Source: an uncultured Sediminispirochaeta sp. | GTDB taxonomy: Bacteria > Spirochaetota > Spirochaetia > DSM-16054 > Sediminispirochaetaceae | DNA length: 64,000 bases | Assembly (NCBI GenBank): GCA_964632675.1 | Contig: CAZWDV010000008.1 | Location: forward strand, 17,725-81,724 | Direction: 5' to 3' | In this document: piece by piece, positions 45,067-64,000 of the stretch | Layout: every line of letters begins with the position of its first letter | How positions within the stretch are numbered: the first letter of the stretch is position 1 | Made by a program: the position numbers and the translations under genes | The notes under the pieces: model-generated | Told to the model about the DNA's origin: nothing | Database searches by the model: none | Seen by the model: only the letters and a program-made list of their open reading frames with translations

Positions 45067-45095
45067 TTGACACCGCAGAAAACTGGGGCTAAACT
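45067..45095 (+). promoter_or_regulatory. sigma-70-like promoter of the 45188 ABC operon
   Basis: TTGACA (45067-45072), 17-nt spacer, TAAACT (45090-45095). Operator S6 starts 11 nt downstream, the same layout as at the 33892 operon. Confidence 0.6.
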
Positions 45096-45105
45096 TTTTC
45101 TATAC

Positions 45106-45119
45106 TGCATACGTATTCT
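45106..45119. promoter_or_regulatory. Operator-like palindrome S6, TGCATACGTATTCT
   Basis: Sits at or near the predicted +1 of the ABC operon. 182 bp from S5. The flanks of S5 and S6 are also similar (ACTGCATACGTAT-CT-GATT). Confidence 0.6.
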
Positions 45120-45187
45120 TGATTAAATGTGTGTAACAGGCGTTCTTTCTACACAAAAGAAGGACGTCAAAATATAAGGAGGAGAAA

Positions 45188-46519: not shown

Positions 46520-46551
46520 CTACTTTTAGGTGAGTTATTTACGGTGTTCTT

Positions 46552-46577
46552 CCCCATCCGGTAACCGCCGGATGGGG
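46552..46577 (+). terminator. Intercistronic stem-loop after the SBP gene (partial terminator or mRNA stabiliser)
   Basis: CCCCATCCGG-taaccg-CCGGATGGGG, a perfect 10-bp stem followed by TTT. Located 33 nt after the SBP stop. Confidence 0.5.
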
Positions 46578-46618
46578 TTTCACTGTATTTGTAGACGTAA
46601 AACCAGGAGAAATACGAT

Positions 46619-47482: not shown

Positions 47483-47485
47483 GCT

Positions 47486-48490: not shown

Positions 48491-48523
48491 TTATAGTCTT
48501 CCGACTGTATATAATATTAAAAC

Positions 48524-48558
48524 GCAACTTCCTGTTTTTTAAAAAGGCAGGAAGTTGC
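48524..48558 (+). terminator. Stem-loop after the permease genes
   Basis: GCAACTTCCTG-ttttttaaaaagg-CAGGAAGTTGC, a perfect 11-bp stem 34 nt after the stop at 48490. Only a weak T tract follows. Confidence 0.4.
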
Positions 48559-48596
48559 ACTTTCATGCAACAGTGCAGATACACCAGGAGTAAAAA

Positions 48597-49772
48597 ATGG
48601 CGAAAAAAGAACTTAAACAGAATGAGAAGAAAGAAAAAATCGAATTTGACTTAAACGCGGACATAAGTGAAATGATTCCGCCCCAGAGTGAACGGCGGCA
48701 AAGTCTCGAAGGCTTCGACGATGATTACACCGATATTGTCGACTACATTGTCCGCTGCACCTACAAAATTTGGGACGAGAAAAATGTCGGCCTGGTCTAT
48801 ACCCATTATCATCACAAATCTTTGGCCCACATGCCCCACGGCCTGGTATACGGTCGCGATGATGTGGTTGCCGCCACTGCGGCAGCTCAAAATGCCTTTC
48901 CCGATTTCAAACTGTATGTGGATGACGTGCTGTGGCGCGGAAATGATCAGGAGGGCTTTGATACCTCTATGCCCAGTACCGCCGTGGGTACGAACCTCGG
49001 CTGGAGCATGTACGGCCCGCCTACAGGAAAAAAAATCTGTCGCCGCGGTATAGCTAACTGTTTTATCCGTAAAAATCGCATTATCGAGGAGTGGGTAGTG
49101 CATGATGATGTGACCACAGTGCAGCAGCTCGGCTTCGACCTCGATGAAACGGTGAAAAAGCTGGTTGCAGACGGGTATTGTGATGACCTTCAGGCTGAAG
49201 TGGGGCCGATTGAGAGGATACATGGAGAGGGAGAGCCTCCCTCTCTCCCCCCGAAACCCTCCAACCCGGAAGATGTGGAGGGGCTGATTCGACGGGCAAT
49301 TGAAGAAACCTTTAACTGGCGTCTGTTCGGGAAAGTGGATGAGTATTATAATGAAAACTATCAGTATCACGGCAGTAGGAATCAAACTTTCTATGGCCGA
49401 GATTCATATAAGAAGCAGCTTCTGCAGTGGATTTCGCTGTTTCCGGATGCTCATTTGAGTATCGACGACATTTACTGGAACGGAAACGCGAAAGACGGGT
49501 TTCGTTCCTCTACCCGTTGGACCCTGCGCGGAACCCACAGGGGCAACGGTGTTTTTGGTCCTCCCTCCAACCTGCGGGTCGAAATCATGGGTATTACCAA
49601 CCATGTGATCAAAGATGGCCGGTTTACGGAGGAACTGACACTGTTCAACGAGCTCGAGACAATGGTGCGAATTGAACGGGCCCGCCAGAAGAGTGCCGGT
49701 GGTGCTGCGGAAGTGCTGTCGGCGGAGGGTACCACAGCGGATTCTTTCCCAGCAGAAGACAGCCAGGAGTAG
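48597..49772 (+). CDS. Tandem SnoaL-like (NTF2-fold) protein
   Basis: 391 aa. Two SnoaL repeats: FPDFKLYVDDVLWRGNDQEGF...VGTNLGWSMYGPPTGKKICRRGIANCFIRKNRIIEEWVVHD and FPDAHLSIDDIYWNGNAKDGF...RGTHRGNGVFGPPSNLRVEIMGITNHVIKDGRFTEE. Same architecture as 32668..33660. Confidence 0.7.
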   Translation: MAKKELKQNEKKEKIEFDLNADISEMIPPQSERRQSLEGFDDDYTDIVDYIVRCTYKIWDEKNVGLVYTHYHHKSLAHMPHGLVYGRDDVVAATAAAQNAFPDFKLYVDDVLWRGNDQEGFDTSMPSTAVGTNLGWSMYGPPTGKKICRRGIANCFIRKNRIIEEWVVHDDVTTVQQLGFDLDETVKKLVADGYCDDLQAEVGPIERIHGEGEPPSLPPKPSNPEDVEGLIRRAIEETFNWRLFGKVDEYYNENYQYHGSRNQTFYGRDSYKKQLLQWISLFPDAHLSIDDIYWNGNAKDGFRSSTRWTLRGTHRGNGVFGPPSNLRVEIMGITNHVIKDGRFTEELTLFNELETMVRIERARQKSAGGAAEVLSAEGTTADSFPAEDSQE

Positions 49773-49775
49773 TTT

Positions 49776-50588
49776 ATGGCAGAGCAAGCCGGCCGCAGTT
49801 CACAGGATCTTTTACGGGAGTTTATTGAAAAGGTATTGGGAGAACGCCAGCTCGGCCGGGTTGAATCGCTCTGTTTTCACCGGGTAAAGCTGTTCGATAT
49901 CCGCTGCCGCCAGTATTACTCTGTGGCGGCGGTGCAGGAGCAGCTGCTGCATCTTTTCAGAACCTGTCCGGATCTCGAATGTGAAGTCCTGGAAGAGCTT
50001 GAAGACCTCCATACCAAAAGCGGCGCCGCTGCTTTGCTGCGTATAAAAACGGCCGGCCGGGAATACTCAGGGCTTATTATGGCCAGAACTGCTCGGGAGT
50101 GGATCACCACTCTCCGGTTTCTTTTTAATGTGGACTTTGATGTGGACGCAGACGACATCAGTCTGAACTCTTTTCCCGCAGCAGAGGTTGAAGTTGCCTC
50201 AGTACCGAACAAAATCTACATGCTGTATTCACACCTGAAAGAAGCGGAGATCTATCCGCAACTTGAAAATTACCTGTATGCCCTGGCCGGACTGCCGCGC
50301 ACGGAATCCTCTGTTGCGCCGGAGACTCTGCAAGACCCCCAGATCTGTGAACTACCAGGAAGTGTGTATCTTGCAGATATAATGGGAAAAAGAATCGGAC
50401 CACACGCGTATGCCTATATTCTGGCCTGGTATAAAGGACTGCTGCTGCCCCAGGGCAATGTAACGGTGAGCGGCGGGTCGTATATTGAGCTGGATACCCG
50501 CGGGCTGATGCGCGACATCCGCGTGTACGATGATAGTCCTATGGACCGACCGGGAACGGAAGAACAGCATGAACAGGATCAAACCTAA
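49776..50588 (+). CDS. Hypothetical protein with an N-terminal NTF2/SnoaL-like segment
   Basis: 270 aa. Starts 3 nt after the previous stop. DLLREFIEKVLGERQLGRVESLCFHRVKLFD...LLHLFRTCPDLECEVLEEL follows the SnoaL N-terminal pattern. The C-terminal ~150 aa is unassigned. Confidence 0.45.
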   Translation: MAEQAGRSSQDLLREFIEKVLGERQLGRVESLCFHRVKLFDIRCRQYYSVAAVQEQLLHLFRTCPDLECEVLEELEDLHTKSGAAALLRIKTAGREYSGLIMARTAREWITTLRFLFNVDFDVDADDISLNSFPAAEVEVASVPNKIYMLYSHLKEAEIYPQLENYLYALAGLPRTESSVAPETLQDPQICELPGSVYLADIMGKRIGPHAYAYILAWYKGLLLPQGNVTVSGGSYIELDTRGLMRDIRVYDDSPMDRPGTEEQHEQDQT

Positions 50589-51110
50589 AAAGTGAAAACA
50601 CGACCAAACGTGAGATTATTGATGCCACCATGGCTTATAAAGAAGTAAAGGGCGGAGTGTTCCGGATTCCCCGCGAATTGCGGGGGCTGAACTAGCTTTT
50701 TATTGATTTCGTGCACGCCTTATGAACAGAGGTTACTCAGGTGTACAAAGAGTTGTATTCGGACTATCTATAGAAAGTAGGGGTCTACATTTAGATTCAC
50801 TGCTCATGGCGCCGGATACATCAACTATGATATTCCTCCTGATAATGTAAAAGTGATGGTTGAAGCAGCGCATGATTTTTGCACATACCTGAAAAAATGT
50901 GATTCATATCGAAGGACATCTTTGTAATAGAACATGGAGAGAGACTTTTTTATCCATATACTAAGCAGCAAAATAAATGATATATCATTATAAATTATAT
51001 ATAAAATATTGTAACAAAATAAAATAAAAAATTTTAAATAAACATTTTTCAAAAGATATGTTTTATGTTATTATAAATATATTGAATTAAACAAACAAGG
51101 AGGAAATAGC

Positions 51111-52430
51111 ATGAAGAGACTACTTATCTTAGTGCTTGTGTGTGTTGTGTGCAGTCTGGGAACTGTATGGGCTGCCGGCAGCAGTGAAGAATCAGGATCA
51201 GCAAAACCGGTTATAAGCGCAACTGCCGCGGGTAACCCTAATGCGCCAATTAAACTGAAGGGGATGATCGGCTCCTGGAATACTATGGCATCCAGCGACG
51301 AAGCTCGAAAAACTTTTTATGAGGGGCAGCTGAAAAAATGGGCGGAAAATCACCCGAATGTATATGTTGAAATCGAACTGATTCCAGGTGGACAAACAGC
51401 ACAGGCTATGACAAAACTGTTGAATGCCGCAATCGCCGGCGAACCGTACGATTTTGCCAACGTAGACTCCCAGTGGGTTGGTAACTTCCATGAAGACGGG
51501 GTTCTGAGTGCAATTGATGAGTACGTGAGCCAATCTGACAAGGATGAGTACTTCGATTTTACCAAAATGGTAACCCAGCGAGATGGAAATCAGTATTCGC
51601 TGTGGGCTGAAACCGGAACGCTGCTCTACTATGTGAATACCGATTATGCAGCAGAAGCTCCTGAAACATGGGATGATATCTTTGCTCTGTCTGAAAAACT
51701 GCAGGCGGAAGATACCGATGTATGGCCCTTTCTCACTCAGGGGAAAGGTGCTGCCGCCGCTTTCTGTTTCCTGCCACACTTCTGGGCGCAGGGAGGAGTT
51801 CTGTTCGACCCGAACGACGATTTCCGTCCGGTATTCGGTGAGGGTAAAAACAAGGCAGCAATGGTCAATGCTCTGAATTTCTACAAAGAGCTGATCGACA
51901 GCAACACAACCCCGAAAGAAATCGTCGGATATGAGCACAAAGAGCTGCAGGCTGAAGCCAAAGCCGACAATGTTGCTACCATGATTGCCGGTTCCTGGGT
52001 AAATGGAGCGCTCTCTGATTCTTGGGAGTATACTTCTCTGCCGACTCCGAAGGCCGGTCAGGCTTCGAATATCTACGGCGGATGGACTTTCTCGTTTATG
52101 TCAGAGGATGAAGAGAAGCTTGAAGAGGCGGTGAATTTTATCCAGACAGTTTACACCAGCAAGGATGCAATGGCCGAACGATTGCCGCTGCACGGGTATA
52201 TCCCAACCCGAAAAGATGTGTTCGATGCTCCGGCGTTTGACAGCCCATTCTATGACCAGATTTATGAAGAACTGGAAGTCGGGCGTGCCCGGCCGGCTAC
52301 TTCTCTGTATCCGGAAGTGGAAAGCCTGCTCGAAGAGGCAATTGGCAAGATTATTGCCGGTAACGCCAATGTTGAATCAATTGTTGATCAGATGTACGGT
52401 AAAGTACTTACCAAATACAACGAGATGTAA
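51111..52430 (+). CDS. ABC transporter solute-binding lipoprotein, family 1 (CUT1)
   Basis: 439 aa. AAGGAGG SD. Signal MKRLLILVLVCVVCSLGTVWA, with a possible lipobox VVC. Family-1 SBP blocks. Confidence 0.8.
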   Translation: MKRLLILVLVCVVCSLGTVWAAGSSEESGSAKPVISATAAGNPNAPIKLKGMIGSWNTMASSDEARKTFYEGQLKKWAENHPNVYVEIELIPGGQTAQAMTKLLNAAIAGEPYDFANVDSQWVGNFHEDGVLSAIDEYVSQSDKDEYFDFTKMVTQRDGNQYSLWAETGTLLYYVNTDYAAEAPETWDDIFALSEKLQAEDTDVWPFLTQGKGAAAAFCFLPHFWAQGGVLFDPNDDFRPVFGEGKNKAAMVNALNFYKELIDSNTTPKEIVGYEHKELQAEAKADNVATMIAGSWVNGALSDSWEYTSLPTPKAGQASNIYGGWTFSFMSEDEEKLEEAVNFIQTVYTSKDAMAERLPLHGYIPTRKDVFDAPAFDSPFYDQIYEELEVGRARPATSLYPEVESLLEEAIGKIIAGNANVESIVDQMYGKVLTKYNEM

Positions 52431-52436
52431 TTACAT

Positions 52437-52463
52437 GGTGTGCAGGACGAGTTCCTGCACACC
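52437..52463 (+). terminator. Intercistronic stem-loop after the second SBP gene
   Basis: GGTGTGCAGGA-cgagt-TCCTGCACACC, a perfect 11-bp stem 7 nt after the stop. No T run follows, so it is more likely an mRNA-stability or attenuation hairpin. Confidence 0.5.
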
Positions 52464-52487
52464 CTATACTATTGGAGGCCTCACCTC

Positions 52488-53348
52488 ATGTTAGATAGTT
52501 CAAAGCGCTGGATTTTCGTGTGGTTATTACCTGTTGCCCTTATACTGGCTTTTTTCTATTTGCTGCCGGTGGTAGACGCCATTAGGTTGAGTTTCACAAA
52601 CGCACGCGTTGGTACTGCGGATATCTCTTTTTCCCTCAGCTCATACGCACAGGTCCTGCGAGACTCAGATCTAATAGTAATTTTACGGAATACACTCATC
52701 TTTGTAGTTTTCACAGTAGCTTTTCAGCTTATCCTCGGTTTGTTAGTAGGATTATTATTAGAAACACATCTGCCGGGAATGGAACTGCTCAAAGTTGCTA
52801 TGATAACTGCATGGGTTGTGCCAGGGGTTATTGCCGGAATTACCTGGAACCTTTTGTACAGCAGTGCCGCTTGGGGTGTCATTAACAATACCATCGAGTT
52901 GCTCGGTGGCGAGCGTATATCCTTTCTGGTGAATTCCGGGTGGGCCCTTATGGGGATTGTAATAGCCAATATATGGCGGGGTACCGGGTTTAGCGGTATC
53001 ATGCAATACGGTGCCCTGCGGGCGATTGATCCGCAGTTATACGAGGCGGCTTCGATTGATGGTGCAAGCGGTATGCAGCAGTTCTGGAGGATTACCCTGC
53101 CGATGCTCAAACCGATGCTCTTTATCAATTTGGTGCTGATAACGATTGCCACTGTGAACACCTACGATGCCATTTGGGCCTTAACCCAGGGCGGTCCTGG
53201 GATTTCGACTACTGTATTGTCACTGCAAACCTATAAGGCATCTTTTCTGCGGATGAATCTCGGACAGGGAGCAGTGTACGCGGTGTTGATGATTCTTTCA
53301 TCTACGATATTCACTTCGATTTATTTGCATATGATGAGGGAAAAATAG
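52488..53348 (+). CDS. ABC sugar-type permease (MalF-like)
   Basis: Start moved to ATG 52488 (GGAGG SD 9 nt upstream). The track start GTG 52440 lies inside the hairpin. EAA loop YGALRAIDPQLYEAASIDGASGMQQFWRITLPML. Confidence 0.85.
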   Translation: MLDSSKRWIFVWLLPVALILAFFYLLPVVDAIRLSFTNARVGTADISFSLSSYAQVLRDSDLIVILRNTLIFVVFTVAFQLILGLLVGLLLETHLPGMELLKVAMITAWVVPGVIAGITWNLLYSSAAWGVINNTIELLGGERISFLVNSGWALMGIVIANIWRGTGFSGIMQYGALRAIDPQLYEAASIDGASGMQQFWRITLPMLKPMLFINLVLITIATVNTYDAIWALTQGGPGISTTVLSLQTYKASFLRMNLGQGAVYAVLMILSSTIFTSIYLHMMREK

Positions 53349-54191
53349 ATGAAAAACTATACTTTGAATCAGAGGATTATTCTCTATATATTCTTTGCAC
53401 TGCTGCTGGTCTTTTTTCTGCTGCCGGTGCTCTACATAATTTCACTTTCTTTGAAGACGGGCGATCAAATACTCGAGAAGGTGCATCTGTTCAACTTTTT
53501 TCTCGGTGACGTGACCCTGGAAAACTATGGCAAAGTCATCACGAATATTAGAATGGACATATATCTCAAGAACTCTGCGCTGCTGGTTATTTCAACGGCG
53601 ATTGGAGTGCTGCTGGCCGCGTTTCCGTCCTCATATGCACTTTCACGTGGAAGTTTTAAGCGGAAAAATGTGGTGTTGATCGGAATACTATTTTTTCAAA
53701 TGATCTCTCCGATAATCATCAGTATTCCGATTTATTGGTACTACGCCAAGCTGAATCTTCTGAATACCTTCGGCGGCATTGCCCTAATCTATATTGCCAT
53801 CCATCTTCCTTTTACTACTTTTTTGATGAAAGGGGTGTTTGATGCAATTCCCCGCGAACTGGATGAGGCGGCAACTGTAGACGGCTGCAAAAGGATGGAA
53901 ATTCTGGTCAGGGTGCTTATTCCGGCAGCACTTCCGGGGATTGCCAGTGCTACTATCTTTAACAGTATAAATGCATGGTCACAGTTTATCATTCCCTTCT
54001 TCCTTTTGAGTGACAATAAGTTGTACCCCGTTTCGGTTGGTATACTGCAGGCGCAGGGCTCGTATCAGGATGTGTCTACCCAGTATCTATCAGCGGCCGG
54101 GGTAATTGGATTGCTGCCGGCAGTTGTACTGGTACTCTTTTTACAAAAATTTATCATCAAAGCGCTGGTGACCGGGGCCGTGAAGGGTTAG
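53349..54191 (+). CDS. ABC sugar-type permease (MalG-like)
   Basis: 280 aa, 6 TM. EAA loop GVFDAIPRELDEAATVDGCKRMEILVRVLIPAALP. Confidence 0.85.
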   Translation: MKNYTLNQRIILYIFFALLLVFFLLPVLYIISLSLKTGDQILEKVHLFNFFLGDVTLENYGKVITNIRMDIYLKNSALLVISTAIGVLLAAFPSSYALSRGSFKRKNVVLIGILFFQMISPIIISIPIYWYYAKLNLLNTFGGIALIYIAIHLPFTTFLMKGVFDAIPRELDEAATVDGCKRMEILVRVLIPAALPGIASATIFNSINAWSQFIIPFFLLSDNKLYPVSVGILQAQGSYQDVSTQYLSAAGVIGLLPAVVLVLFLQKFIIKALVTGAVKG

Positions 54192-54201
54192 GATTAATAA
54201 T

Positions 54202-54882
54202 ATGAAGATTAAATGGCTCGGACATGCGGCCTTTCTGATTTCAGGAGAGGGAAAAAAGATTATTACGGACCCGTATGATCCTTCAATCACAAAACTGCAT
54301 CCTGTTGACGATGCTGCGGATATTGTGGTGCGGAGTTCGGAGAATGACCAGGCGCATTGCTATGTAGAGGCGCTTCCCGATGGGTATGTGTTGCTCACTG
54401 CCACCGATTACATAGCACCGAACAAAACCGAGGAGGAAGCTGTAGGCGTTTTATTTCAATTTATCCCGTCCCGTGAGAGTGTAATCCACAAAGAAGTTGC
54501 CCGGGAAAATGCCTTTTATCGATTTTCTTTAGAGGGTATCGAAATTGCCCATCTAGGTGATATCGGGAACGCCATGACCGAAGAGCATATAAACTTTTTA
54601 CGGGGTACAGACATCCTGCTGGCTCTGGCCGGTGGACCTCCTACTATTGAACTGAAAGATCTCTTCTCCGTAATTGAAGAAATCCAGCCAAAGCTGGTGA
54701 TACCGATGCACTACCGGATTCCTGGTCCGAAGTTTTTTATGCTGCCGATCGATAAGCTGATTAGCTATTTCAATCAATCGGTAGTAACTTGGACCGGTGA
54801 GTCGGAAATCGAGCTGACGAAGAGCGCATTACCAGCTGCGACGCAGCTGCTCATTCTTGAGCCCTCAAGGGTAAAAGAGTAG
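54202..54882 (+). CDS. MBL-fold (Lactamase_B_3 / UPF0173-like) metal-dependent hydrolase
   Basis: 226 aa. MKIKWLGHAAFLISGEGKKIITDPY...IAHLGDIG...VIPMHY is the typical short MBL-fold pattern. Confidence 0.65.
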   Translation: MKIKWLGHAAFLISGEGKKIITDPYDPSITKLHPVDDAADIVVRSSENDQAHCYVEALPDGYVLLTATDYIAPNKTEEEAVGVLFQFIPSRESVIHKEVARENAFYRFSLEGIEIAHLGDIGNAMTEEHINFLRGTDILLALAGGPPTIELKDLFSVIEEIQPKLVIPMHYRIPGPKFFMLPIDKLISYFNQSVVTWTGESEIELTKSALPAATQLLILEPSRVKE

Positions 54883-54966
54883 GACGAAAGCGCAGCATGA
54901 TCGCAGAGGGCTCATAGTTCGTGGCCTTTAGTTGCTCTGACTCATATTCTTCTTTAGAATACTATT

Positions 54967-57537
54967 ATGACCAAGATACATCTCATTTGCAATGCACATA
55001 TAGACCCTGTATATCTTTGGGAGTGGGAAGAGGGTGCCGCCGAGGCACTAGCAACATTCCGTACTGCAGCGGATTTTTGCGAGCGCTGCGACGGCTTTGT
55101 GTTCAATAAAAACGAGGTAATCCTGTACGAATGGGTCAAAGAATTCGACCCTTCCCTCTTTACTCGTATACAAAAACTGGTACAACAGGGCAAGTGGCAT
55201 ATAATGGGAGGATGGTATGTACAACCGGACTGCAACATGCCCGCGGGCGAATCTCTGGTAAGACAGATCCTGCGCGGACGGGAGTTTTTCCTGCAGCACT
55301 TCAACACGCGTCCCACCACCGCAATCAATTTCGATCCCTTCGGGCATTCCGGAGGTTTGGTCCAGATCTTGGTGAAGTCGGGATTCGATTCGTACCTTTT
55401 TTGCCGGCCCGAAGAAAAGTATCTAAATTTGCCGGCCCCCGATTTTTTGTGGACCGGCCCCGACGGCTCGCGGATTCGCACCCACCGGGCTATGGATCTG
55501 TATAAATCCAGGCGAGGGGCTGCCGTACAACGCATCGATGAATATCTGGAAAAGGTGAAGCCGACTTACAGGGGTTTGGTGCTCTGGGGGATTGGCAATC
55601 ATGGCGGCGGACCGTCTGCAGAAGACCTTGATGCTATTTCTCAGAACATAGAGCGGTGGGAATCTAAAGGCTGGAAAATAGGCCACTCCACTCCGGAAGC
55701 CTATTTTAACCACTACACACCAGGCCTTCCGGAATTTGAGGGAGATCTGAATCCCTTTGCTGTGGGGTGCTATACTTCCCAGATCAGAATTAAGCAGAGT
55801 CATCGAGCTCTGGAAAATGCGCTCTTTCTTACAGAAAAAATGGCCGGCCGGTCGGCACTTGCGGCTGGAATGGAATATCCGCAGCACGAACTACAGGAGG
55901 CCGAAGATGATTTGCTGCTCAGTGAGTTTCACGACATCCTGCCCGGTACCTCCATACAATCGGCCGAGGAAAGCTCACTGAGGTTGATGGGCCATGGTTT
56001 GGAAATTTTATCGAGAATCCGAATGAAATCATTTTTACAATTATGCCGGGCAGTACCCGACGCAATCACCCTTTTTACCAACAAGCAAAACAGCGAACCG
56101 GCTTATTCTTTGGTTGTGTACAACCCTCATCCCTGGGAGTTTTGTAGCCGCCTTATCTGTGAACTCCAGTTGGCTGATCAAAATCTGAAGGGGAGCTTTA
56201 CAGATTTTCGTGTGGTGGATGCAGCCGGTAGAGAAATACCCTGTCAAGTTGAAAAAGAAGCCAGCAATATTCCGGTTGACTGGCGTAAACGACTGGTACT
56301 CAAAGCGCCCCTCAAGCCTTCTGCCCTTACCACCCTGAAGTGTCTGCCCCGGGAAATAGAGAAAAAAGCACCGCCCCATGCCTCCGGCTTTGTCTTCGAG
56401 ACAGCCTCGCATATCAAGGTGAAGGGTCAAAACAGCGAATTCGTTGTTTCAAAAGAATCCGGCGCTTTGATAAAAATGGATACCAACAATGAAACTTTGC
56501 TGGCCGGCCCTTCATGTGTACCGATTGTACTTAAGGACAGTTCAGATCCATGGGGAGTGAACGTAGATCGCTTCGACATGCTAATCGGCAGTTTTGAGCT
56601 GATGAGTCCGGAGGAGACCTCCGGGTTCTGTGCTCTCGATACTCTTTTGCCGCCGGTTCACATAGTCGAATCGGGACGAGTGCGCACTGTAGTGGAGTGC
56701 TGTTTTAAGTACAAAACCTCCAGCCTGGTTATGAGATATAGCATGCTGCATGACGAGAGCCGTCTCGAAGTGGACATGCGCGTGAATTGGCAGGAAAAGG
56801 ACAAAATGCTGAAGGCGCCGTTGTATGCTATCGGGCAGAAAAAAAGATGCTTCGGCCAGACTGCTTATGCAGTCCAGGAATACACCGAGTTTGGACGGGA
56901 GAACGTGTCCCAGAAGTGGACGGCTCTGCTGGCCGATATCCCGGAGGCTGCCGGCTTTGCGGTCTTAGACCGGGGTATGTACGGATTCCATTTCGACGAG
57001 GAGGGATTGTACCTTTCACTGCTCCGTTCGCCGGCCTATTCAGCCTATCCGGTGCCCGGAACCAAACCAATCAGCAGCGATCGCTACACTCCCCGGATTG
57101 ATCAGGGCGAGCACAGATTCCGCTTTGACCTCCTCGCCGGCCCCTCCGCCCACATACGCCAACATGTAGATCGCAGAGCTCTTGAAATAAATGAAGAACC
57201 CTTTTACTTGTTTATGTCGCTGTCGAATAGCCCGACGACTGACCCAACGTCTGCAATTACCACTACCTCGGAGGCACAAGACCCTCAAGAGAGTTTTATT
57301 AAACTGGACAATCCGGCCGTCGTCATGACTGCCTTCAAACGGTCCCGCAGCGGCCTGCAGTATGTCATCCGCCTCCACGAGACCAGTGGTACATCCCAAA
57401 CCGCAGTCCTCAGGCTTCCGCAGCTCGACCTGCACAATATCATCGATTTCTCACCATTTGAAATAAAAACCTTTTTACTTGACCCGGTCTCGACCACTCT
57501 TACAGAAAGTGATCTGCTGGAGGGGTTATCAAAGTAG
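54967..57537 (+). CDS. GH38 alpha-mannosidase (cytoplasmic, 856 aa)
   Basis: LICNAHIDPVYLWEWEEG (GH38 HxD metal motif), GGWYVQPDCNMPAGESLVRQILRGREFF, FDPFGHS, EFHDILPGTS. No signal peptide. Confidence 0.9.
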   Translation: MTKIHLICNAHIDPVYLWEWEEGAAEALATFRTAADFCERCDGFVFNKNEVILYEWVKEFDPSLFTRIQKLVQQGKWHIMGGWYVQPDCNMPAGESLVRQILRGREFFLQHFNTRPTTAINFDPFGHSGGLVQILVKSGFDSYLFCRPEEKYLNLPAPDFLWTGPDGSRIRTHRAMDLYKSRRGAAVQRIDEYLEKVKPTYRGLVLWGIGNHGGGPSAEDLDAISQNIERWESKGWKIGHSTPEAYFNHYTPGLPEFEGDLNPFAVGCYTSQIRIKQSHRALENALFLTEKMAGRSALAAGMEYPQHELQEAEDDLLLSEFHDILPGTSIQSAEESSLRLMGHGLEILSRIRMKSFLQLCRAVPDAITLFTNKQNSEPAYSLVVYNPHPWEFCSRLICELQLADQNLKGSFTDFRVVDAAGREIPCQVEKEASNIPVDWRKRLVLKAPLKPSALTTLKCLPREIEKKAPPHASGFVFETASHIKVKGQNSEFVVSKESGALIKMDTNNETLLAGPSCVPIVLKDSSDPWGVNVDRFDMLIGSFELMSPEETSGFCALDTLLPPVHIVESGRVRTVVECCFKYKTSSLVMRYSMLHDESRLEVDMRVNWQEKDKMLKAPLYAIGQKKRCFGQTAYAVQEYTEFGRENVSQKWTALLADIPEAAGFAVLDRGMYGFHFDEEGLYLSLLRSPAYSAYPVPGTKPISSDRYTPRIDQGEHRFRFDLLAGPSAHIRQHVDRRALEINEEPFYLFMSLSNSPTTDPTSAITTTSEAQDPQESFIKLDNPAVVMTAFKRSRSGLQYVIRLHETSGTSQTAVLRLPQLDLHNIIDFSPFEIKTFLLDPVSTTLTESDLLEGLSK

Positions 57538-57710
57538 TTCAGGCGGTTCGGTTTCAAAGACGGTAATTATTATCCCGTCTTCCCGCTGGTCGAATGAATC
57601 AGCATAGTAAACAGTATAGTTTGAGTTAAGATCCGCTCATGAACAAAAACTGTGGAGTCCTGTGGACCGAATATATATTCAAAGCCTTAATAAGAGAAAA
57701 GTTCTTGCAG

Positions 57711-58826
57711 TCAGTCCTTAACTTTTATTGTCGTTTCTCCTTGAATAAACTCAATCTCGATTTCCTGGCGGTGTTCAAACTCCTGTCCGTTGAGCATTTT
57801 CTGGATAAGTGAGAATGCACATTCGGCAATCTTTTTTTCGTTCTGTTTTAAGTGTGTGATAGGCTTGATCCGGTTCACAAGATAGCTGGGTGCATCAAAA
57901 CAGATAAGTGAGAGATCTTCGGGTATGCGTATGCCCAACTCGTGGGCAGCAGCCTCAACCACTGGTACGACTGAATATTTGAGTCCAAATACGGCAGTAA
58001 GCTCACGATGCTCTAGAAGATAAGCCTTTATCTTTTCCTTTGCCTTGATGAACGCCTCTTCATCCCGAGTGTCGATGGTTTCCAGGTCTGTCAGCCACCA
58101 CTCCTGTTTGAATTTGTAGCCGTTTTCGACTATAGCGTGCATAATTCCCTTCTCCCGTTCCATCAGGGTTGTAGTGGAACCGATCGGGCGGGAGAGAATG
58201 CCGATATTCCGATGGCCAAGTGAATAGAGATGGTTAATGCCGGTTTGAGCAGCTTCGAAGTTCTTTGAGATTACATTTGGACAGGACACGTCCTTCAAAT
58301 AGCGGTCAATGAGTACTACAGGAAAGCCGTCCAAAATAAGCTTGAGTATATCATTGTTGAAGGATTCATTGTGTGCCGGAAAGATGATGAACCCGTCTAC
58401 TCCATAGCTAAGAAAATTCGACAAGAGCCGTTTTTCACGTTCGATCTCGTCGTTGCTGATGCCCGTGAGAGTGAGTATGTCGGCATCCTGAGCGAGGCGC
58501 TCCAAAGTTTGAAATATTTCAAGTCCGAATGAATCGGAGAGATTGTGTTGAATCAAACCGAATACCTTGCGCTTGGTGCTCTGATTTCTTCCAATCATCT
58601 TTTTTGAGTCGTCGGCAATGAAGGATCCTCTCCCGGGATGTTTTACGATGATAAGGTTTTCTGCTGCCATATCCAGGGCTTTTTTTGAGGTAATCCGGCT
58701 GACCTTGTAGGTTTCGGCCCACTCGGCTTCGGTCGGAATTTTATCCCCAGGTTTATACTCACCAGAATCGATCCTGCGGAGAAGTTCATTATAAATTACT
58801 CTGTACAATGGTTTTTTTTCATTCAT
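57711..58826 (-). CDS. AraR-type chimeric regulator (GntR wHTH plus PBP-type sugar-binding domain)
   Basis: 371 aa. YRVIYNELLRRIDSGEYKPGDKIPTEAEWAETYKVSRITSKKALDMAAENLIIVKHPGRGSFI, followed by a Peripla_BP-like domain. Codons 3-6 sit on an A8 run (T8 on the + strand, 58812-58819). Confidence 0.8.
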   Translation of the reverse strand: MNEKKPLYRVIYNELLRRIDSGEYKPGDKIPTEAEWAETYKVSRITSKKALDMAAENLIIVKHPGRGSFIADDSKKMIGRNQSTKRKVFGLIQHNLSDSFGLEIFQTLERLAQDADILTLTGISNDEIEREKRLLSNFLSYGVDGFIIFPAHNESFNNDILKLILDGFPVVLIDRYLKDVSCPNVISKNFEAAQTGINHLYSLGHRNIGILSRPIGSTTTLMEREKGIMHAIVENGYKFKQEWWLTDLETIDTRDEEAFIKAKEKIKAYLLEHRELTAVFGLKYSVVPVVEAAAHELGIRIPEDLSLICFDAPSYLVNRIKPITHLKQNEKKIAECAFSLIQKMLNGQEFEHRQEIEIEFIQGETTIKVKD

Positions 58827-58917
58827 AGTAGTATAGTACGCCGACTTTTTCGAAATGTCAAGAAATGATATATCAAAAAATTTTTTTAATTAATTGTACA
58901 GAAATAAATAATTATTG

Positions 58918-58934
58918 TGTAAAACCATTTTACA
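58918..58934. promoter_or_regulatory. 17-bp palindrome TGTAAAA-CCA-TTTTACA in a divergent promoter region
   Basis: Perfect 7-bp arms. Lies between the regulator gene (57711..58826, -) and the URO-D-family gene (59015, +). Confidence 0.45.
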
Positions 58935-59014
58935 TGTATATGTATGTATAATATAATAATTATATCTTATAATATATTTGCAAGACCAGCGAATGGTTTT
59001 CAAGGAGCGCGTTT

Positions 59015-60172
59015 ATGACATCCAGGCAGAGACTATTAAAGGCATTGGCGAATGAAAAGCCAGATAAATTGCCGGCAACAACTCATACCTTACAGAAATA
59101 TTATCTCGATAGATATGAAAATGGAGCTAGTTTTTCAGATTTTTTCGAAACTCATCAGCTTGATCTGATTGACTGGATTCGTCCTTTCAAACCAGACGAG
59201 ACACGGGGACAATATTGGTCTGATCCTGCTACTACCGGATATGACGGAATAGTCAGCGATCAGTGGAAAATTTCTGCTGAAGATCTCGAAGATCCACAAT
59301 ACCAAACTACGCGGTATCGTATAGAGACTCCAGAGGGGACTCTTTCTATGATTCTCCAGGCAAATGAATATACCCATTGGGTGAAGGAGCATCTGCTCAA
59401 AGAATCGCACGAATTGGACCTCCTACAGAAATATGCACCCCACTTTGTGTGTGACACTGACGAGGTTGAAGCCCATGCTGCGGCAATCGGCGAGCGAGGG
59501 ATTGTGAGATCGGTCACTCCTGTGTTTGATATCTACGGTCAGCCCGGGTGCTGGCAGGATGCTGCGGTTCTGTTGGGTATTGAAAAACTTATATATGCTA
59601 CTTTTGATGATTCGGGGTGGGTGAAGGAGCTGCTCGCATTGCTCCGGGATCGCAAGCTCAGCTATATCAATTCAATGCAGGATACACCCATCGATTTGAT
59701 TGAGCTCGGGGGTGGGGATGCTTCCACTACAGTTATTTCACCGGGAATTTTTCAGGAATTCGTAGCTCCTTATGATGCCCCGCTCATAGAGGCAGCCCAT
59801 ACGGCTGGCCAGAAGATTGTATATCACACCTGTGGGGGTATGATGCCGATTCTGGAAGATATTGCAGCAATGAAACCAGATGCCATGGAGACATTTACTC
59901 CTCCTGGTATGGGGGCCGACGTGGATCTGGCAGAAGCGCATGCGCGGATCGGTGATCAGGTGTGCTTTATTGGTGGATTCGATCAAGGGTACTATTTATG
60001 GAGATCTACTCCTGAAGAAACCCGTGCGGAGGTCAAACGGTGCTTTGCAGCAGCGGGTAAAGACGGCGGGTATATAATTGCACCATCCGACCACTTTTTC
60101 GATGCCAAACCCGAACTGTTAGATGCTTTCTCTGCTGCAGCCGCAGAGTGTACCTACCAAGCCGAGGGGTAG
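59015..60172 (+). CDS. Uroporphyrinogen decarboxylase (URO-D) family protein, MtaA/CmuA-like methyltransferase subgroup
   Basis: 385 aa. AAGGAG SD. RQRLLKALANEKPDKLP N-terminus, GGGDASTTVISPGIFQEFVAPY, KIVYHTCGG (H-x-C as in Zn-dependent MtaA-type enzymes), GGYIIAPSDH. No heme-pathway context. Confidence 0.7.
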   Translation: MTSRQRLLKALANEKPDKLPATTHTLQKYYLDRYENGASFSDFFETHQLDLIDWIRPFKPDETRGQYWSDPATTGYDGIVSDQWKISAEDLEDPQYQTTRYRIETPEGTLSMILQANEYTHWVKEHLLKESHELDLLQKYAPHFVCDTDEVEAHAAAIGERGIVRSVTPVFDIYGQPGCWQDAAVLLGIEKLIYATFDDSGWVKELLALLRDRKLSYINSMQDTPIDLIELGGGDASTTVISPGIFQEFVAPYDAPLIEAAHTAGQKIVYHTCGGMMPILEDIAAMKPDAMETFTPPGMGADVDLAEAHARIGDQVCFIGGFDQGYYLWRSTPEETRAEVKRCFAAAGKDGGYIIAPSDHFFDAKPELLDAFSAAAAECTYQAEG

Positions 60173-60175
60173 ATC

Positions 60176-63100
60176 ATGCCGAAGAGAAAACCAAAAGACC
60201 CCGAGCGAAGCCCCGATCTGCCCCACAACTGGATAGAACGTCACATACAGAGATTGGAAGCCTTTGTGTATTATGATCCTATCGATCTGACTTCTTGGAA
60301 GATACGACAAGCCGTGTACCATGGGCCTGGGAATTATGAATATATTGATGAGCAATGGCGTGAGATTGCCTTGGGCGACTCCTGGGGAGGGCCGAACACC
60401 ACGGCCTTTTTTAATACCAGCTTTACTGTTCCGAAGAGCCATTCCGGTGATGATATGGTTCTGGATGTATTTCTGGATGGAGGTGAAGCCCAGATAAGCA
60501 TTAACGGGCGTCCCTGGCAGGGTTTGGACTGGAACCGATCGATTGTACCGCTGAAGGGGTTAGCTGTTACTGGAAAGATGCTGGAACTCGATATAGAGGC
60601 TTTCATTATAAATTATCCCTACGATGACCGTCGCAACGACGAGCGTGAATCCCACTGTTTTGAGCGGGCCAGGCTCATGAAGCGTGATGCAGTAATAGAG
60701 GCTTTTGTTCATGATGCGCATTTTGTGCTGGATTCCTATTTAAGTTACTGGAGGAGTGACGAGGATTATGAAATCGAGCAATTCCTGCTGCATCATCTAA
60801 GAAATGCGTGCCGGGCAATTGGACCGCAGGTGAGAAACCGAGAAGCCGCTCGTGAGGCCGCAGTAGGGGCACGTAGTATACTGCAAGAAAATGTATTTGC
60901 CAGTCGGGCTTATCAAAAAGCTGGTTTGGTAAATATATGTGCTCACTCTCATTTAGATATCGTATATCTTTGGCCGATTAGGGAGACCTTTCGTAAAAAC
61001 TGCCGTACTGTTACTAATATGCTGAGTCTCATGCGCGAATACCCCGAGTATCGATTCAGCTACAGCCAGCCTTATCTGTATGAAAAGCTGAAGGAGTTGT
61101 ATCCGCAGGTATTTGAAGAAGTGAAACAGCGGGTAAAAGAGGGGCGTTGGGAAGTAATCGGTGCGATGTATGTGGAGCCGGACGGAAACCTGCTCGGCAC
61201 CGAGAGTCTGATCCGCCAGATTCTGTTCGGCAAGCGTTTCCTGAAGGATGAGTTGGGAGTCGATACAGCGACCTGCTGGCTTCCTGATGTATTCGGGGTG
61301 ATCTATTCTCTTCCGCAAATTTTAAGAAAATCCGGCGTTAAGTATTTTAGTACGGTAAAGCTGAACATTTGGAACGACACCAACGATTTTCCGCATGATA
61401 GTTTCCGTTGGAGAGGTCCCGACGGCAGCGAAGTAATCGCACATTTCCCGCCGACACATTTCGGGCAGAAATATGATCCGGATACTCTCCGGCGACACTG
61501 GAACGATTTTGTAGAGAAGAATACGGTTGGTGAAAACCTGTATGTATACGGATATGCCGACGGCGGGGGTGGACCGACACGTGAGATGGTTGAGGCGAGC
61601 TTGAGGACGAGCCATTTTCCGGGATTGCCGGAGGGAAGGATAGAGTTGGTCGAAGAATTCTTCCGGCGTCTGGAAGCCCGCAGTGATAAATTGGCCATCT
61701 GGGATGATGAGCTGTATCTCGAGGCCCATCGGGGCACTTATACCACCAAGGGCGATTTGAAACGGCTCAATCGAAAAGCGGAGGTGCTCTATCGTGAGGT
61801 CGAAATCATCAGCTCAATAGCCTGGCTGTATGGAGGCCCGCGTATTCAAGAGCGTTTGAATAAGGGCTGGAAGCTGATACTGCTGAACCAGTTCCATGAC
61901 ACTCTGCCGGGCACGCATAGCCCTGAATGTGTTCCGGATATAAAAAAGGATTATGGGTCGATTTTCGAAATCGTTGAACAGATAAAAAATGAGGTAGTAA
62001 ACTACATAAGCGGTAAAATTAGACGAAGCTCCAAAGCAAAACACTGGGTATTGTTGAATACGGTATCGTGGCAACGCTCTGATGTCGCCGCCTTGCCAGC
62101 GGACCCGAATTCGAAGGACGAGACGGGTACCATTGTATTTTCGGATGGAATTGCGCTGCCGTACCAGCAGTATGGAGATATGCTGTGGTTTTGTGCGTCC
62201 GGTGTGCCGCAGCTCGGGTGGGAGACTGCCCGAATTTCTCAAAAGCATGAGCAGAGCAATGAGAAGACTGCTGATATGTATGGAAATAGAATTGAAACCG
62301 AGTTCTATACTGTCGAGCTGTGTGACGGGGGAAGCATATCGAGGCTGTACGATAAACACAATGATCACGAGGTTTTCACAGCACCCGGAAACCAATTTCT
62401 GGTATATGAGGATGATCCGGGATATAAGTTCAGCAGCTGGGATTTGGCCTATCACTTCGAAGAATATTGTTTTCCTGTGATGCAGCAGGAGCCGTGGTCT
62501 TGTGTCAGCAACGGGCCTGTCTGTGCGGTGTTTGTCAGTTCGTGGCAGGTGCTTGAGTCGACAATCGAGCAGGAGATGTGGCTATTCAAGCACTCAGCTC
62601 GAATCGACTTTAAGACTAAGGTGTGGTGGAATAATAAACGTAAACTCTTAAAGGTGGCTTTCCCGCTGAAAATCAGGACGCGACGAGCTACCTATGACTT
62701 GCCGTTTGCGCATATCGAGCGGCCTACCCATCGGAACACCAGCTGGGATCAGGCTAAGTTCGAGGTTTCGGGCCACAAATGGGCGGATGTTTCAGAAGGA
62801 AATTATGGTGTAGCCCTGCTGAATGATTGTAAGTACGGATATGATGTAAAAGACAACATAATGCGTCTGTCGTTGCTGCGCAGCCCAGTACGGCCGGATG
62901 GTCAGAGTGATCAAGGTTTTCATCAATTCACTTACGCCCTGCTGCCGCACGCGGGAAATTGGATCGAGGGTGAAGTGGACCGACATGGGTACGAGTTGAA
63001 CATGCCGATAGTTGCCGCCGCTCTCGGGAATGATGACAGCAATGTGCAGGAGAGTATGCCGTCTAGAGCTTCTTTGGTTGCGACTCAATCACCGCATATT

Positions 63101-63337
63101 ATAGTTGAAACAGTGAAACAGGCGGAACAAGGAGACCAGTTGATTCTGCGTAGTTTTGACACTCATGCTACCCATAGTGAGGTGGATTTTAGGTTTGAGA
63201 AAAAACTACGGGCTGTAGCGGAAACCGATCTTCTGGAGGAGCATCCCTTGGAATGTGAGCTCAAGGATGAGCACTACCTGCGTGTCGGTTACCAACCCTT
63301 CGAGATCAAAACCCACAGGCTCGATTTTCTCCGTTGA
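60176..63337 (+). CDS. GH38 alpha-mannosidase (cytoplasmic, 1053 aa)
   Basis: CAHSHLDIVYLWPIRET (HxD motif), GAMYVEPDGNLLGTESLIRQILFGKRF, WLPDVFG, NQFHDTLPGTH. Starts 3 nt after the URO-D-family stop. No signal peptide. Confidence 0.9.
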   Translation: MPKRKPKDPERSPDLPHNWIERHIQRLEAFVYYDPIDLTSWKIRQAVYHGPGNYEYIDEQWREIALGDSWGGPNTTAFFNTSFTVPKSHSGDDMVLDVFLDGGEAQISINGRPWQGLDWNRSIVPLKGLAVTGKMLELDIEAFIINYPYDDRRNDERESHCFERARLMKRDAVIEAFVHDAHFVLDSYLSYWRSDEDYEIEQFLLHHLRNACRAIGPQVRNREAAREAAVGARSILQENVFASRAYQKAGLVNICAHSHLDIVYLWPIRETFRKNCRTVTNMLSLMREYPEYRFSYSQPYLYEKLKELYPQVFEEVKQRVKEGRWEVIGAMYVEPDGNLLGTESLIRQILFGKRFLKDELGVDTATCWLPDVFGVIYSLPQILRKSGVKYFSTVKLNIWNDTNDFPHDSFRWRGPDGSEVIAHFPPTHFGQKYDPDTLRRHWNDFVEKNTVGENLYVYGYADGGGGPTREMVEASLRTSHFPGLPEGRIELVEEFFRRLEARSDKLAIWDDELYLEAHRGTYTTKGDLKRLNRKAEVLYREVEIISSIAWLYGGPRIQERLNKGWKLILLNQFHDTLPGTHSPECVPDIKKDYGSIFEIVEQIKNEVVNYISGKIRRSSKAKHWVLLNTVSWQRSDVAALPADPNSKDETGTIVFSDGIALPYQQYGDMLWFCASGVPQLGWETARISQKHEQSNEKTADMYGNRIETEFYTVELCDGGSISRLYDKHNDHEVFTAPGNQFLVYEDDPGYKFSSWDLAYHFEEYCFPVMQQEPWSCVSNGPVCAVFVSSWQVLESTIEQEMWLFKHSARIDFKTKVWWNNKRKLLKVAFPLKIRTRRATYDLPFAHIERPTHRNTSWDQAKFEVSGHKWADVSEGNYGVALLNDCKYGYDVKDNIMRLSLLRSPVRPDGQSDQGFHQFTYALLPHAGNWIEGEVDRHGYELNMPIVAAALGNDDSNVQESMPSRASLVATQSPHIIVETVKQAEQGDQLILRSFDTHATHSEVDFRFEKKLRAVAETDLLEEHPLECELKDEHYLRVGYQPFEIKTHRLDFLR

Positions 63338-63374
63338 AATGGTTTAATATGGTCCTACAGAAACGGAGGATATA

Positions 63375-64000
63375 ATGTCAAAAATTACCTGTCGCATAGA
63401 ACAGAATGATAAAATTCATATAGTTGAAGCTGCTGCGGGCATGCGGCTGCTGGATGTGCTCAATATGCTCGATGAGGTAGAGGTCGACGCTCCCTGCGGC
63501 GGCAACGGGACCTGCGGGAAGTGTAAAGTGAGGGTTGTCTCGGATGGCCGGGACGGCGGTCTTTCAGCGCCCAACGGCGCCGAGCATACCTTCTTAACGC
63601 AAAAAGAGCTGGAGCAGGGGATCAGATTGTCCTGCCGGGCGGTTATAACCGGCGATTGTCACATTGCCATGTTGGATAAAGACCTGGAAGCAGACATTCT
63701 CAGTGATACCGCCGTGTTTCAGGGTGAACTTGATCCTCCAATTGAAAAGACCTACCTAGAATTGCCTGAGCCGTCGATCGACGACCAGCGCCCTGATAGT
63801 GTGCGGATAGGTGAAAGCTTGCTGCTGCTGCGCGGGACCTCCGGCCCTGAAGATCTGCCGCCTGCACTTCCCCTCTACGTACGGCAGCAGCTGCCGGAAC
63901 TGCTGCGCAGCTCAGATTACAAGGTCACTGTGGTGCACAATCACCGAATGATATATGCGGTGCAGGCGGGGGATACCAGCTCCCGGCATTTCGGTATTGC
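63375..64000 (+). CDS. [2Fe-2S] ferredoxin-domain / ASKHA (DUF4445) protein resembling corrinoid reductive activases (RACo/RamA-like). N-terminal ~208 codons; continues beyond the right edge.
   Basis: Absent from the ORF track because it is open at the window edge. GGAGG SD. MSKITCRIEQNDKIHIVEAAAGMRLLDVL...DAPCGGNGTCGKCKV...GIRLSCRA is the CGGxGxCGKC...C plant-type 2Fe-2S signature of this family. The window ends at ...SSRHFGIA, where the ASKHA domain normally begins. Confidence 0.7.
   Translation, partial: MSKITCRIEQNDKIHIVEAAAGMRLLDVLNMLDEVEVDAPCGGNGTCGKCKVRVVSDGRDGGLSAPNGAEHTFLTQKELEQGIRLSCRAVITGDCHIAMLDKDLEADILSDTAVFQGELDPPIEKTYLELPEPSIDDQRPDSVRIGESLLLLRGTSGPEDLPPALPLYVRQQLPELLRSSDYKVTVVHNHRMIYAVQAGDTSSRHFGI

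Follow-up and report, generated by a model that had tools for sequence, protein, structure and literature searches.

We suggest that a UroD-superfamily protein encoded among alpha-mannosidase genes of an uncultured Sediminispirochaeta sp. is the first methyltransferase (MT-I) of a corrinoid-dependent O-demethylase, the substrate of which would be O-methylated mannose or a mannoside bearing one. The gene lies at 59015-60172 of a 64,000-nucleotide (nt) stretch of contig CAZWDV010000008.1, called the window below, and the name URO-D* is used for the protein and its ortholog clade. We put the probability of this reading at about one half: corrinoid dependence of URO-D* appears rather likely, a methyl-mannose substrate appears about equally likely once corrinoid dependence is granted, and the two taken together lead to this value. 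Comparative genomics gives independent support in the Asp-for-Cys replacement at the predicted metal site, the operons of URO-D* with corrinoid proteins in other phyla and the mannose-catabolic partners. What is new here, as the sequence data suggest, is the extension of corrinoid O-demethylation to carbohydrate methyl ethers through an uncharacterised UroD clade.

According to the proposed pathway, the CUT1-type ABC system would import methylated alpha-mannosides or oligomannose, and the Ams1-type GH38 enzymes would trim them in the cytoplasm. The sugar methyl ether would be bound by URO-D* at a Zn site (His271, Cys273, Glu292, Asp359), where the metal would polarise the ether oxygen, and the methyl group would be taken by Co(I) of an MtaC-type corrinoid protein in an SN2 reaction, with mannose freed for phosphorylation or isomerisation and glycolysis. 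The methyl-Co(III) form would be unloaded by a second methyltransferase (MT-II), in this lineage probably an MtaA-like::thioredoxin fusion, possibly onto a thiol acceptor, and oxidised Co(II) would be rescued by the RACo activase with ATP and perhaps also by a MetH-activation-like protein with S-adenosylmethionine. Gene content, homologies, motif substitutions and neighbourhood statistics are observed; zinc binding, corrinoid dependence, the substrate and its methyl position, the order of cleavage and demethylation and the methyl acceptor are the parts of this scheme that we infer. A free monosaccharide is favoured as the substrate because of the mutarotase/isomerase/kinase operons described below. 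The chemical precedent is the methanol:corrinoid methyltransferase MtaB/MtaC, in which Co(I), with the help of Zn, cleaves an aliphatic C-O bond. Attack of Co(I) on an aliphatic methyl ether should be feasible, since MtaB achieves such a cleavage on methanol and hydroxide leaves less readily than a sugar alkoxide. The zinc site of MtaB mixes carboxylate and thiolate ligands. MtaB differs from URO-D* in its family (PF12176) and in its substrate, free methanol.

Family, fold and predicted metal site of URO-D*

URO-D* belongs to the UroD superfamily according to its profile match (PF01208, 78 bits, cutoff 23.9), which covers residues 179-375 only, the C-terminal half, and to the (beta/alpha)8 URO-D-like fold of its AlphaFold (AF2) model. 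The sequence-only reading had placed the protein on the methyltransferase side of this superfamily and not with HemE, and the NCBIfam scores agree: MtaA/CmuA-type models gave 59-66 bits, the hemE equivalog (TIGR01464) 17 bits against a cutoff of 303. MtaA/CmuA is thus the best-matching family, though far under threshold (TIGR01463, 58.7 bits, cutoff 235; MtaA_Meth, NF040654, 64 bits, cutoff 400), and URO-D* is a member of neither model. The AlphaFold model (pLDDT 92.5) shows a TIM barrel into which ~75 beta-rich residues are inserted at about 50-125. The best solved fold match was MtaA (4AY7, TM 0.63/0.72), MtaA and HemE structures being found at TM 0.6-0.7, and MetE-type Zn barrels, which are corrinoid-independent, were detected as distant structural relatives.

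The clade is tightly conserved, with 55-72% identity across phyla and invariant blocks including GQPGCWQD, ELGGGDASTTVISP, YHTCGGMMP, ETFTP and PSDHFF. It was found in at least 598 species genomes (a lower bound), chiefly of Spirochaetales and Anaerolineae/Chloroflexota, with further carriers among Ignavibacteria, Planctomycetota, Verrucomicrobiota, KSB1, Bacillota and Bacteroidota metagenome-assembled genomes (MAGs); the cultured Aggregatilinea lenta carries a clade member.

His271-x-Cys273, Glu292 and Asp359-His360 are kept in all 65 of 65 orthologs. In a 118-member family alignment Asp359 aligns with the Cys of the (S/P)GCD motif of MtaA-type paralogs, so that URO-D* does not have the His-Cys-Cys zinc site of thiol activation. 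We predict a metal site formed by His271-x-Cys273, Glu292 and Asp359, a carboxylate standing in for the third Cys of the thiol-methylating MtaA. The third-ligand position came from the family alignment: single-sequence, profile and C-terminal-fragment HMMER alignments to the MtaA structures of the PDB stopped short or gave noise, and BLASTP and hhalign alignments to an MtaA-like paralog ended before the last strand. UroD-superfamily methyltransferases acting on thiols or selenols use His-Cys-Cys, whereas O-methyl-acting members have carboxylates in place of Cys (Kountz and Balskus, PMC10418091); the pattern predicted for URO-D* fits the O-methyl-acting group.

Gene neighbourhoods of the clade

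Both GH38 proteins of the window, GH38a (856 aa) and GH38b (1053 aa), carry the N-terminal catalytic, middle and C-terminal domains of the family (Pfam). A cytoplasmic location, proposed earlier, appears reasonable, since neither protein leaves space for a signal peptide: the GH38N match of GH38a begins at residue 3, and GH38b starts with MPKRKPKDPERS. GH38b scored 435 bits against Ams1 and 52-74 bits against solved bacterial GH38s, and the nearest solved relatives of GH38a are also Ams1-type (147 bits). Orthologs of GH38b (51-65% identity) adjoin URO-D* in spirochaetes and Chloroflexi and are conserved to the same degree as URO-D* itself.

The neighbourhoods of 80 URO-D* loci from many phyla were compared. 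The co-occurrence with GH38 across phyla, which the sequence-only reading had proposed to look for, was found: the distance from URO-D* to a GH38 gene is no more than 300 nt in 16 loci, while 23 loci have one at up to 3 kb and 28 at up to 10 kb. Corrinoid protein genes are found at up to 10 kb in 11 loci, nine of which have them at ~3 kb or less and four (L022, L036, L045 and L023), all from Chloroflexi MAGs, at only 71-139 nt. The order is GH38, URO-D*, corrinoid protein, TauE in L022 and URO-D*, corrinoid protein, GH38 in L023, while L059 has corrinoid protein, MetH-activation-like protein (MetSB12), URO-D*. Tight operons with corrinoid protein, MetSB12 and PfkB first and URO-D* last were detected in L053, L066 and L078 (Ignavibacteria, Bacteroidota and other MAGs). 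Linkage to a corrinoid protein gene is therefore repeated in several phyla with varied gene orders, and chance is a poor explanation for the recurring operons because this type of corrinoid protein gene is rare in genomes.

Between PfkB and URO-D*, L053 and L066 encode an RbsD/FucU-type mutarotase (annotated in L066), and L066 and L078 a Lyx_isomer-like cupin of the D-lyxose/mannose-isomerase family, with a modest match (38 bits) to a family that acts on lyxose too. Mannose is thus implicated twice independently by gene content, through the alpha-mannosidases and through a mannose/lyxose-isomerase, mutarotase and kinase route that would lead from mannose to a ketose phosphate. More widely, GH38, GH31, GH3, beta-helix/GH141-like, GHL10, sulfatase, ROK/PfkB kinase or lyxose/mannose-isomerase genes were found in 47/80 loci, and in 58/80 once sugar transporters and regulators are added; a GH2-like gene in L066 stands outside the count of 47.

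Two or more URO-D-family open reading frames (ORFs) are present in 28/80 loci, and their metal sites vary, with either HxC or HxD and a third position that is not constant. In L030, L045, L052, L067 and L077 up to six paralogs form arrays, adjoining GH38, GH31, GH3, GH2, beta-helix/GH141-like proteins, sulfatases and DUF455; the arrays suggest a broad family of sugar-associated UroD proteins. Organisms with many O-demethylases carry sets of substrate-specific MT-I paralogs, which the arrays resemble. That URO-D* and its paralogs form a large unrecognised family of corrinoid-dependent carbohydrate O-demethylases, passing the methyl group to a non-folate acceptor such as a thiol via MtaA-like::thioredoxin, is a tentative extension that we hold at somewhat below even odds.

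Two further arrangements were noted. A TauE/SafE-family anion exporter gene directly follows the URO-D*-corrinoid protein pair in two Chloroflexi MAGs (L022, 11879-12622; L036, 5266-6009). In L012 (1752-8284, minus strand) a full methanol-type system of MtaB, a UroD paralog, corrinoid protein, DUF1638, RACo and MtaA-like protein adjoins Aldolase_II, URO-D* and another UroD paralog; the corrinoid protein of this locus cannot be assigned to URO-D*.

The corrinoid module and its junction with the cassette

Re-reading of the ORFs recovered exactly every ORF, gap and motif that had been stated for the 3' region of the window, including YHTCGG in URO-D* and CGGNGTCGKC...C in the 2Fe-2S gene at the right edge (Table 1). 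Identical or orthologous genes recur on independent contigs (metagenome contigs and a sister genome), so the genes of the window are not chance ORFs.

Table 1. Features of the mannosidase cassette, the adjoining corrinoid module and their counterparts on related contigs
Feature	Position (window unless stated)	Strand	Basis or remark
Strain-variable 12.8-kb cassette: importer, MBL, GH38a, regulator, URO-D*, GH38b	50541-63373		missing in near-identical strain L167
Second URO-D-family paralog, likely a degraded remnant, His-x-Asp type	50579-50903	+	tblastn fragments 45%/77 aa, 54%/39 aa
ABC sugar importer solute-binding protein, CUT1 type	51111-52430	+	Pfam SBP_bac_8 and SBP_bac_1
ABC importer permeases, two	52440-53348, 53349-54191	+	Pfam BPD_transp_1
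Metallo-beta-lactamase (MBL)-fold protein (Lactamase_B_3)	54202-54882	+	Pfam PF13483, 121 bits
GH38a, divergent cytoplasmic GH38 alpha-mannosidase, 856 aa	54967-57537	+	Pfam GH38 N, middle and C domains
Divergent regulator, GntR helix-turn-helix (HTH) and sugar-binding domain, AraR-type	57711-58826	-	Pfam GntR and Peripla_BP_3
Best sigma-70-like promoter match ahead of URO-D*, TTTACA-17-TATAAT	58929-58957	+	11/12 match at L001 1513-1541; consensus match only
URO-D*, UroD-superfamily protein, 385 aa, proposed MT-I	59015-60172	+	Pfam/NCBIfam scores, alignment, AlphaFold model
GH38b, Ams1/MAN2C1-type cytoplasmic alpha-mannosidase, 1053 aa	60176-63337	+	Pfam
RACo-type activase N-terminus (2Fe-2S and linker), cut by window edge	63375-64000	+	Pfam Fer2 and RACo_linker
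RACo, 628 aa, full gene	window-equivalent 63375-65261 (on L001)	+	Fer2, RACo_linker, RACo_middle, RACo_C_ter
PocR-sensor/AraC regulator	window-equivalent 65270-66601		8 nt past RACo
MtaC-type corrinoid protein, 213 aa	L001 9314-9955 = window-equivalent 66730-67371		PF02607 and PF02310
DUF6951	window-equivalent 67533-67820		
MetH-activation-domain-like protein (MetSB12)	window-equivalent 67823-68512		
Cobalamin riboswitch RF00174	L001 11119-11291 = window-equivalent 68535-68707	+	64.5 bits, E 6e-14
MtaA/CmuA-like::thioredoxin fusions	L007 19542-20828; L168 5818-7182; L170 14173-15534	-	FFVCGD...SPGCD...CAAC

A corrinoid protein had been expected just past the right edge of the window, and it is there, together with the complete RACo gene, on a microbial-mat metagenome contig (L001) that shares 6,584 bases with the window at 100% identity and extends 4.8 kb further. 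The protein has the motifs GDLHDIG, SALL and GGAP (DxHxxG/SxL/GG) and scored 188 bits against TIGR02370. The full RACo scored 434 bits against AcsV (cutoff 800) and by this score is a relative of AcsV, not an AcsV equivalog. The methyl-tetrahydrofolate (methyl-THF) methyltransferase that was also anticipated did not turn up: no pterin-binding protein was found in the window, on L001 or on L007, the syntenic contig of a sister genome (an uncultured Sediminispirochaeta MAG, URO-D* 87% identical). A candidate second methyltransferase beyond the edge was found in relatives only and is not of the pterin-binding type: a convergent gene of L007 encodes 428 aa in which an MtaA/CmuA-like part is joined to a thioredoxin-like CxxC domain, and L001 ends before that position. 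The fusions have Phe in place of the His of HxC (FFVCGD) and keep SPGCD; a CobW/COG0523-type GTPase, possibly a metal chaperone, is encoded beside the fusion gene in L168 and L170.

The cobalamin riboswitch directly follows the MetH-activation-like gene and is itself followed by a terminator-like hairpin; its L007 counterpart lies at 19216-19438, and L168 and L170 are without it. Because the MtaA-like::thioredoxin gene is convergent, read-through of the L007 riboswitch would run antisense to that gene. By analogy this would be B12-controlled antisense regulation like that of riboswitch/AspocR, the known case in Listeria.

The operonic embedding emphasised in the sequence-only reading stands as far as distances are concerned. 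GH38b starts 3 nt past the URO-D* stop codon, in close translational coupling, RACo follows GH38b after 37 nt with a GGAGG motif, PocR follows RACo after 8 nt, and no terminator-like site was seen between URO-D*, GH38b and RACo. The GH38b/RACo junction was nevertheless found to join two separable units. L167 matches window 40578-50540 at 99.8% identity and picks up again at 63374, one base ahead of the RACo start (96.8% identity on this right flank), joining the region of a 270-aa ORF straight to RACo, so that the 12.8 kb in between are a strain-variable cassette; no direct repeats are evident by eye at its junctions. Because L007 and L170 (~82% nt identity) retain the cassette at the same place, the cassette-RACo junction was probably present in the ancestor of this clade, and L167 would have lost the cassette. 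The arrangement is compatible with a common corrinoid module used by interchangeable MT-I genes, and also with coincidence.

In L170 (9776-12549) a RACo of 535 aa has no 2Fe-2S domain, and the PocR/AraC regulator seems to be in two pieces; GH38a is missing, and GH38b has no gene call, yet gives a tblastn match at 81% identity. L170 may be a decaying locus or reflect an assembly or frameshift problem. Stand-alone modules of RACo, PocR-sensor/AraC regulator, corrinoid protein and one His-Cys-Cys MtaA-like protein were seen in L092, L095, L101, L113, L125 and others among L087-L166; they come from many metagenomes, human-gut assemblies among them, and DUF2284 is often present too.

Competing explanations, known systems and other features

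Several observations weigh against a corrinoid-dependent mannose demethylase. No corrinoid protein gene is found within 10 kb in 69/80 URO-D* loci, and RACo in 2/80 only; the loci without a nearby corrinoid protein include spirochaete operons of regulator, solute-binding protein, two permeases, URO-D* and GH38 (L004/L008-L010) and that of Aggregatilinea lenta. The module of RACo, PocR, corrinoid protein and MetSB12 with MtaA-like::thioredoxin/CobW is present without the cassette in L167, L168 and L169, and the comparative analysis weakens the argument from the local operon. We also examined the association from the other side, with the 80 closest metagenomic relatives of the corrinoid protein: none lies beside URO-D* or GH38. 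Their partners are RACo (23 loci), PocR (20), other UroD-family proteins (23, mostly His-Cys-Cys MtaA-like), DUF2284 (8), pterin-binding MT-II (6) and MttB (5), so the corrinoid protein subfamily is generic and this reverse comparison cannot establish specificity. A stand-alone corrinoid module could be self-sufficient, as MtsA is. Foldseek scores for true HemE structures almost equal those of MtaA, giving no clear separation by fold; the placement of Asp359 and Glu292 as metal ligands comes from alignment and strand topology; no pterin-binding MT-II was found in the window, L001 or L007; and the cobalamin riboswitch was not found in 16 other URO-D*/corrinoid protein loci.

Much of this would be expected if URO-D* were a corrinoid-independent, metal-dependent TIM-barrel enzyme acting on a mannose derivative that GH38 releases or requires, for example by decarboxylation, isomerisation or B12-free group transfer. 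The downstream module would then be a separate methyl-thiol or methyl-selenide unit, complete in itself, that only happens to border the cassette in this lineage. The separability of the two units, the abundance of the four-gene module on its own, the generic corrinoid protein, the near-equal fold scores of HemE and the distant kinship with MetE-type barrels are all in its favour. It does not account well for the four loci of Chloroflexi MAGs in which a corrinoid protein gene is 71-139 nt away from URO-D*, nor for the tight operons of Ignavibacteria and Bacteroidota with their differing orders; the sequence similarity is to MtaA/CmuA and not to hemE, the HxC element is kept, and we know of no characterised UroD-superfamily members besides HemE and the corrinoid methyltransferases. 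We regard this explanation as unlikely, at somewhat more than one chance in four.

If URO-D* is corrinoid-dependent, its substrate could still be another methylated sugar or polyol or a methylated mannoside aglycone, or the protein could work on the acceptor side like an MT-II. In many loci URO-D* also adjoins GH3, GH31, GH2, beta-helix/GH141-like proteins, sulfatases or large proteins that have no annotation; the family, with two or more ORFs and varied metal sites in 28/80 loci, clearly spans several substrates overall, and the Lyx_isomer match is modest. One conserved small substrate is argued for by the high identity across phyla and the many invariant residues, GH38 is by far the commonest neighbour, in 16 loci at 300 nt or less, GH38b is conserved like URO-D*, and the loss of one thiolate ligand speaks against a thiol-acceptor role, which leaves these options distinctly improbable. 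The identity of URO-D* as a genuine HemE in tetrapyrrole or B12 synthesis, suggested by the Pfam URO-D match and by HemE structures among the top fold matches, is effectively refuted by the model scores given above, as well as by the half-length profile match, by sugar-catabolic neighbours without any tetrapyrrole-synthesis context and by the HxC motif, which to our knowledge HemE does not have.

The proposed O-demethylase resembles known systems in its parts and differs from each of them. The UroD-superfamily MT-I enzymes MtvB, OdmB, VdmB, MtoB and CdmB pair with a corrinoid protein and an activase, and uncharacterised clades of the superfamily have been acknowledged (PMC13222342). The aryl O-demethylases (MtvABC of Moorella; OdmABCD/VdmB of Acetobacterium dehalogenans; MtoABCD of Methermicoccus/Archaeoglobus) and CdmBCA likewise combine a UroD MT-I with an MtaC-type corrinoid protein carrying DxHxxG and a RACo-type activase, and CdmB has extensions between the first beta-strands of its barrel (PMC13222342), as in the URO-D* model. 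Their substrates are aryl methyl ethers or chloromethane, none a carbohydrate, and their MT-II is pterin-binding and forms methyl-THF, unlike anything found at the URO-D* locus. URO-D* is not detectably nearer to them than to MtaA (the CdmB local match had E=1.4 only), and its context is one of glycoside hydrolases and sugar importers.

The methylcobamide:coenzyme M methyltransferases MtaA, MtbA and MtsA (MT-II) share the N-terminal motif and the HxC strand with URO-D* and are its best sequence-model and fold match, but URO-D* stays at 59-66 bits under cutoffs of 235-400, has Asp359 for the third Cys and carries the ~75-residue insertion; no coenzyme M genes were seen in the annotated URO-D* loci. 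Type 1 mlp clusters (Kountz and Balskus, PMC10418091) contain at least Mlp2 and Mlp3, both His-Cys-Cys, along with a corrinoid protein, an activase and sulfur/selenium genes, and a role in methyl-sulfur/selenium metabolism was proposed for them. The locus of the window, L001 and L007 does not belong to this type, as it has one Asp-substituted UroD protein and one His-less MtaA-like protein and no sulfur or selenium context. The logic of a demethylase beside glycan-degrading enzymes that frees a blocked sugar is known from the CYP236A-type P450 6-O-methyl-D-galactose demethylases of marine Bacteroidetes porphyran loci (PMC6292453). That route is an O2-dependent oxidation that releases formaldehyde and uses an unrelated fold, whereas URO-D* would catalyse anoxic methyl transfer to cob(I)amide.

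Sugar methyl ethers such as 3-O-/6-O-methyl-mannose and 6-O-methyl-galactose are found in glycans of algae and cyanobacteria, in bacterial O-antigens and in methylmannose polysaccharides, and they block glycosidases and sugar kinases. The earlier statement that an anaerobic corrinoid-based sugar demethylation has not been described agrees with our search of full-text literature, subscription journals being largely outside its coverage, which gave no report of a corrinoid-dependent sugar demethylase or of a URO-D/GH38 pairing; the only sugar demethylation route found described there was the oxygen-dependent P450 (PMC6292453). If the proposal is true, an anoxic B12-dependent route would fill this gap in anaerobic carbohydrate catabolism, a function would be assigned to the whole clade, corrinoid O-demethylases would extend from aromatic to aliphatic sugar ethers as a new substrate class, and glycan turnover would be tied to B12 demand and to C1/methyl-sulfur fluxes in sediments, mats, digesters and possibly guts. 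If the family-wide extension also holds, anaerobes that degrade glycans (Spirochaetota, Anaerolineae, Ignavibacteria, Planctomycetota, Verrucomicrobiota and others) would use methylated sugars without oxygen, and in anoxic mats and sediments the decay of glycans would be connected with pools of methyl-sulfur or C1 compounds.

Other genes of the cassette have relatives beside URO-D* elsewhere. Pfam confirmed the GntR-HTH and periplasmic-binding-domain architecture of the divergent regulator, which had been called AraR-like, and the arrangement of a minus-strand regulator, importer, URO-D* and GH38 is kept in L008-L010, where orthologs of the solute-binding protein are found upstream of URO-D*. 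An MBL-fold ortholog (53%) is encoded in L004/L008 and adjoins GH38 in a Marispirochaeta locus too. The URO-D-family fragments at the left end of the cassette are likely a pseudogene remnant, the intact counterpart of which is L007 873-2009, right after the ortholog of the 270-aa ORF of the window.

Upstream of the cassette, an operon at 41412-50588 encodes a GntR/sugar-binding regulator, two M19 dipeptidase-family proteins, a second CUT1 importer, a 391-aa protein with two SnoaL-like domains and the 270-aa protein, which has no Pfam match; in L167 the equivalent operon leads directly into the RACo module. An Rfam scan of the window itself gave no matches. The GC content is 58-66% at 10000-32000 and about 45-52% elsewhere in the window. 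The high-GC block holds housekeeping genes (MnmE, 12562-13932; MnmG, 13946-15805; SLT transglycosylase, 19244-21649; FtsK, 22563-25100), so the sugar-utilisation loci are the low-GC parts of the window and were possibly acquired.

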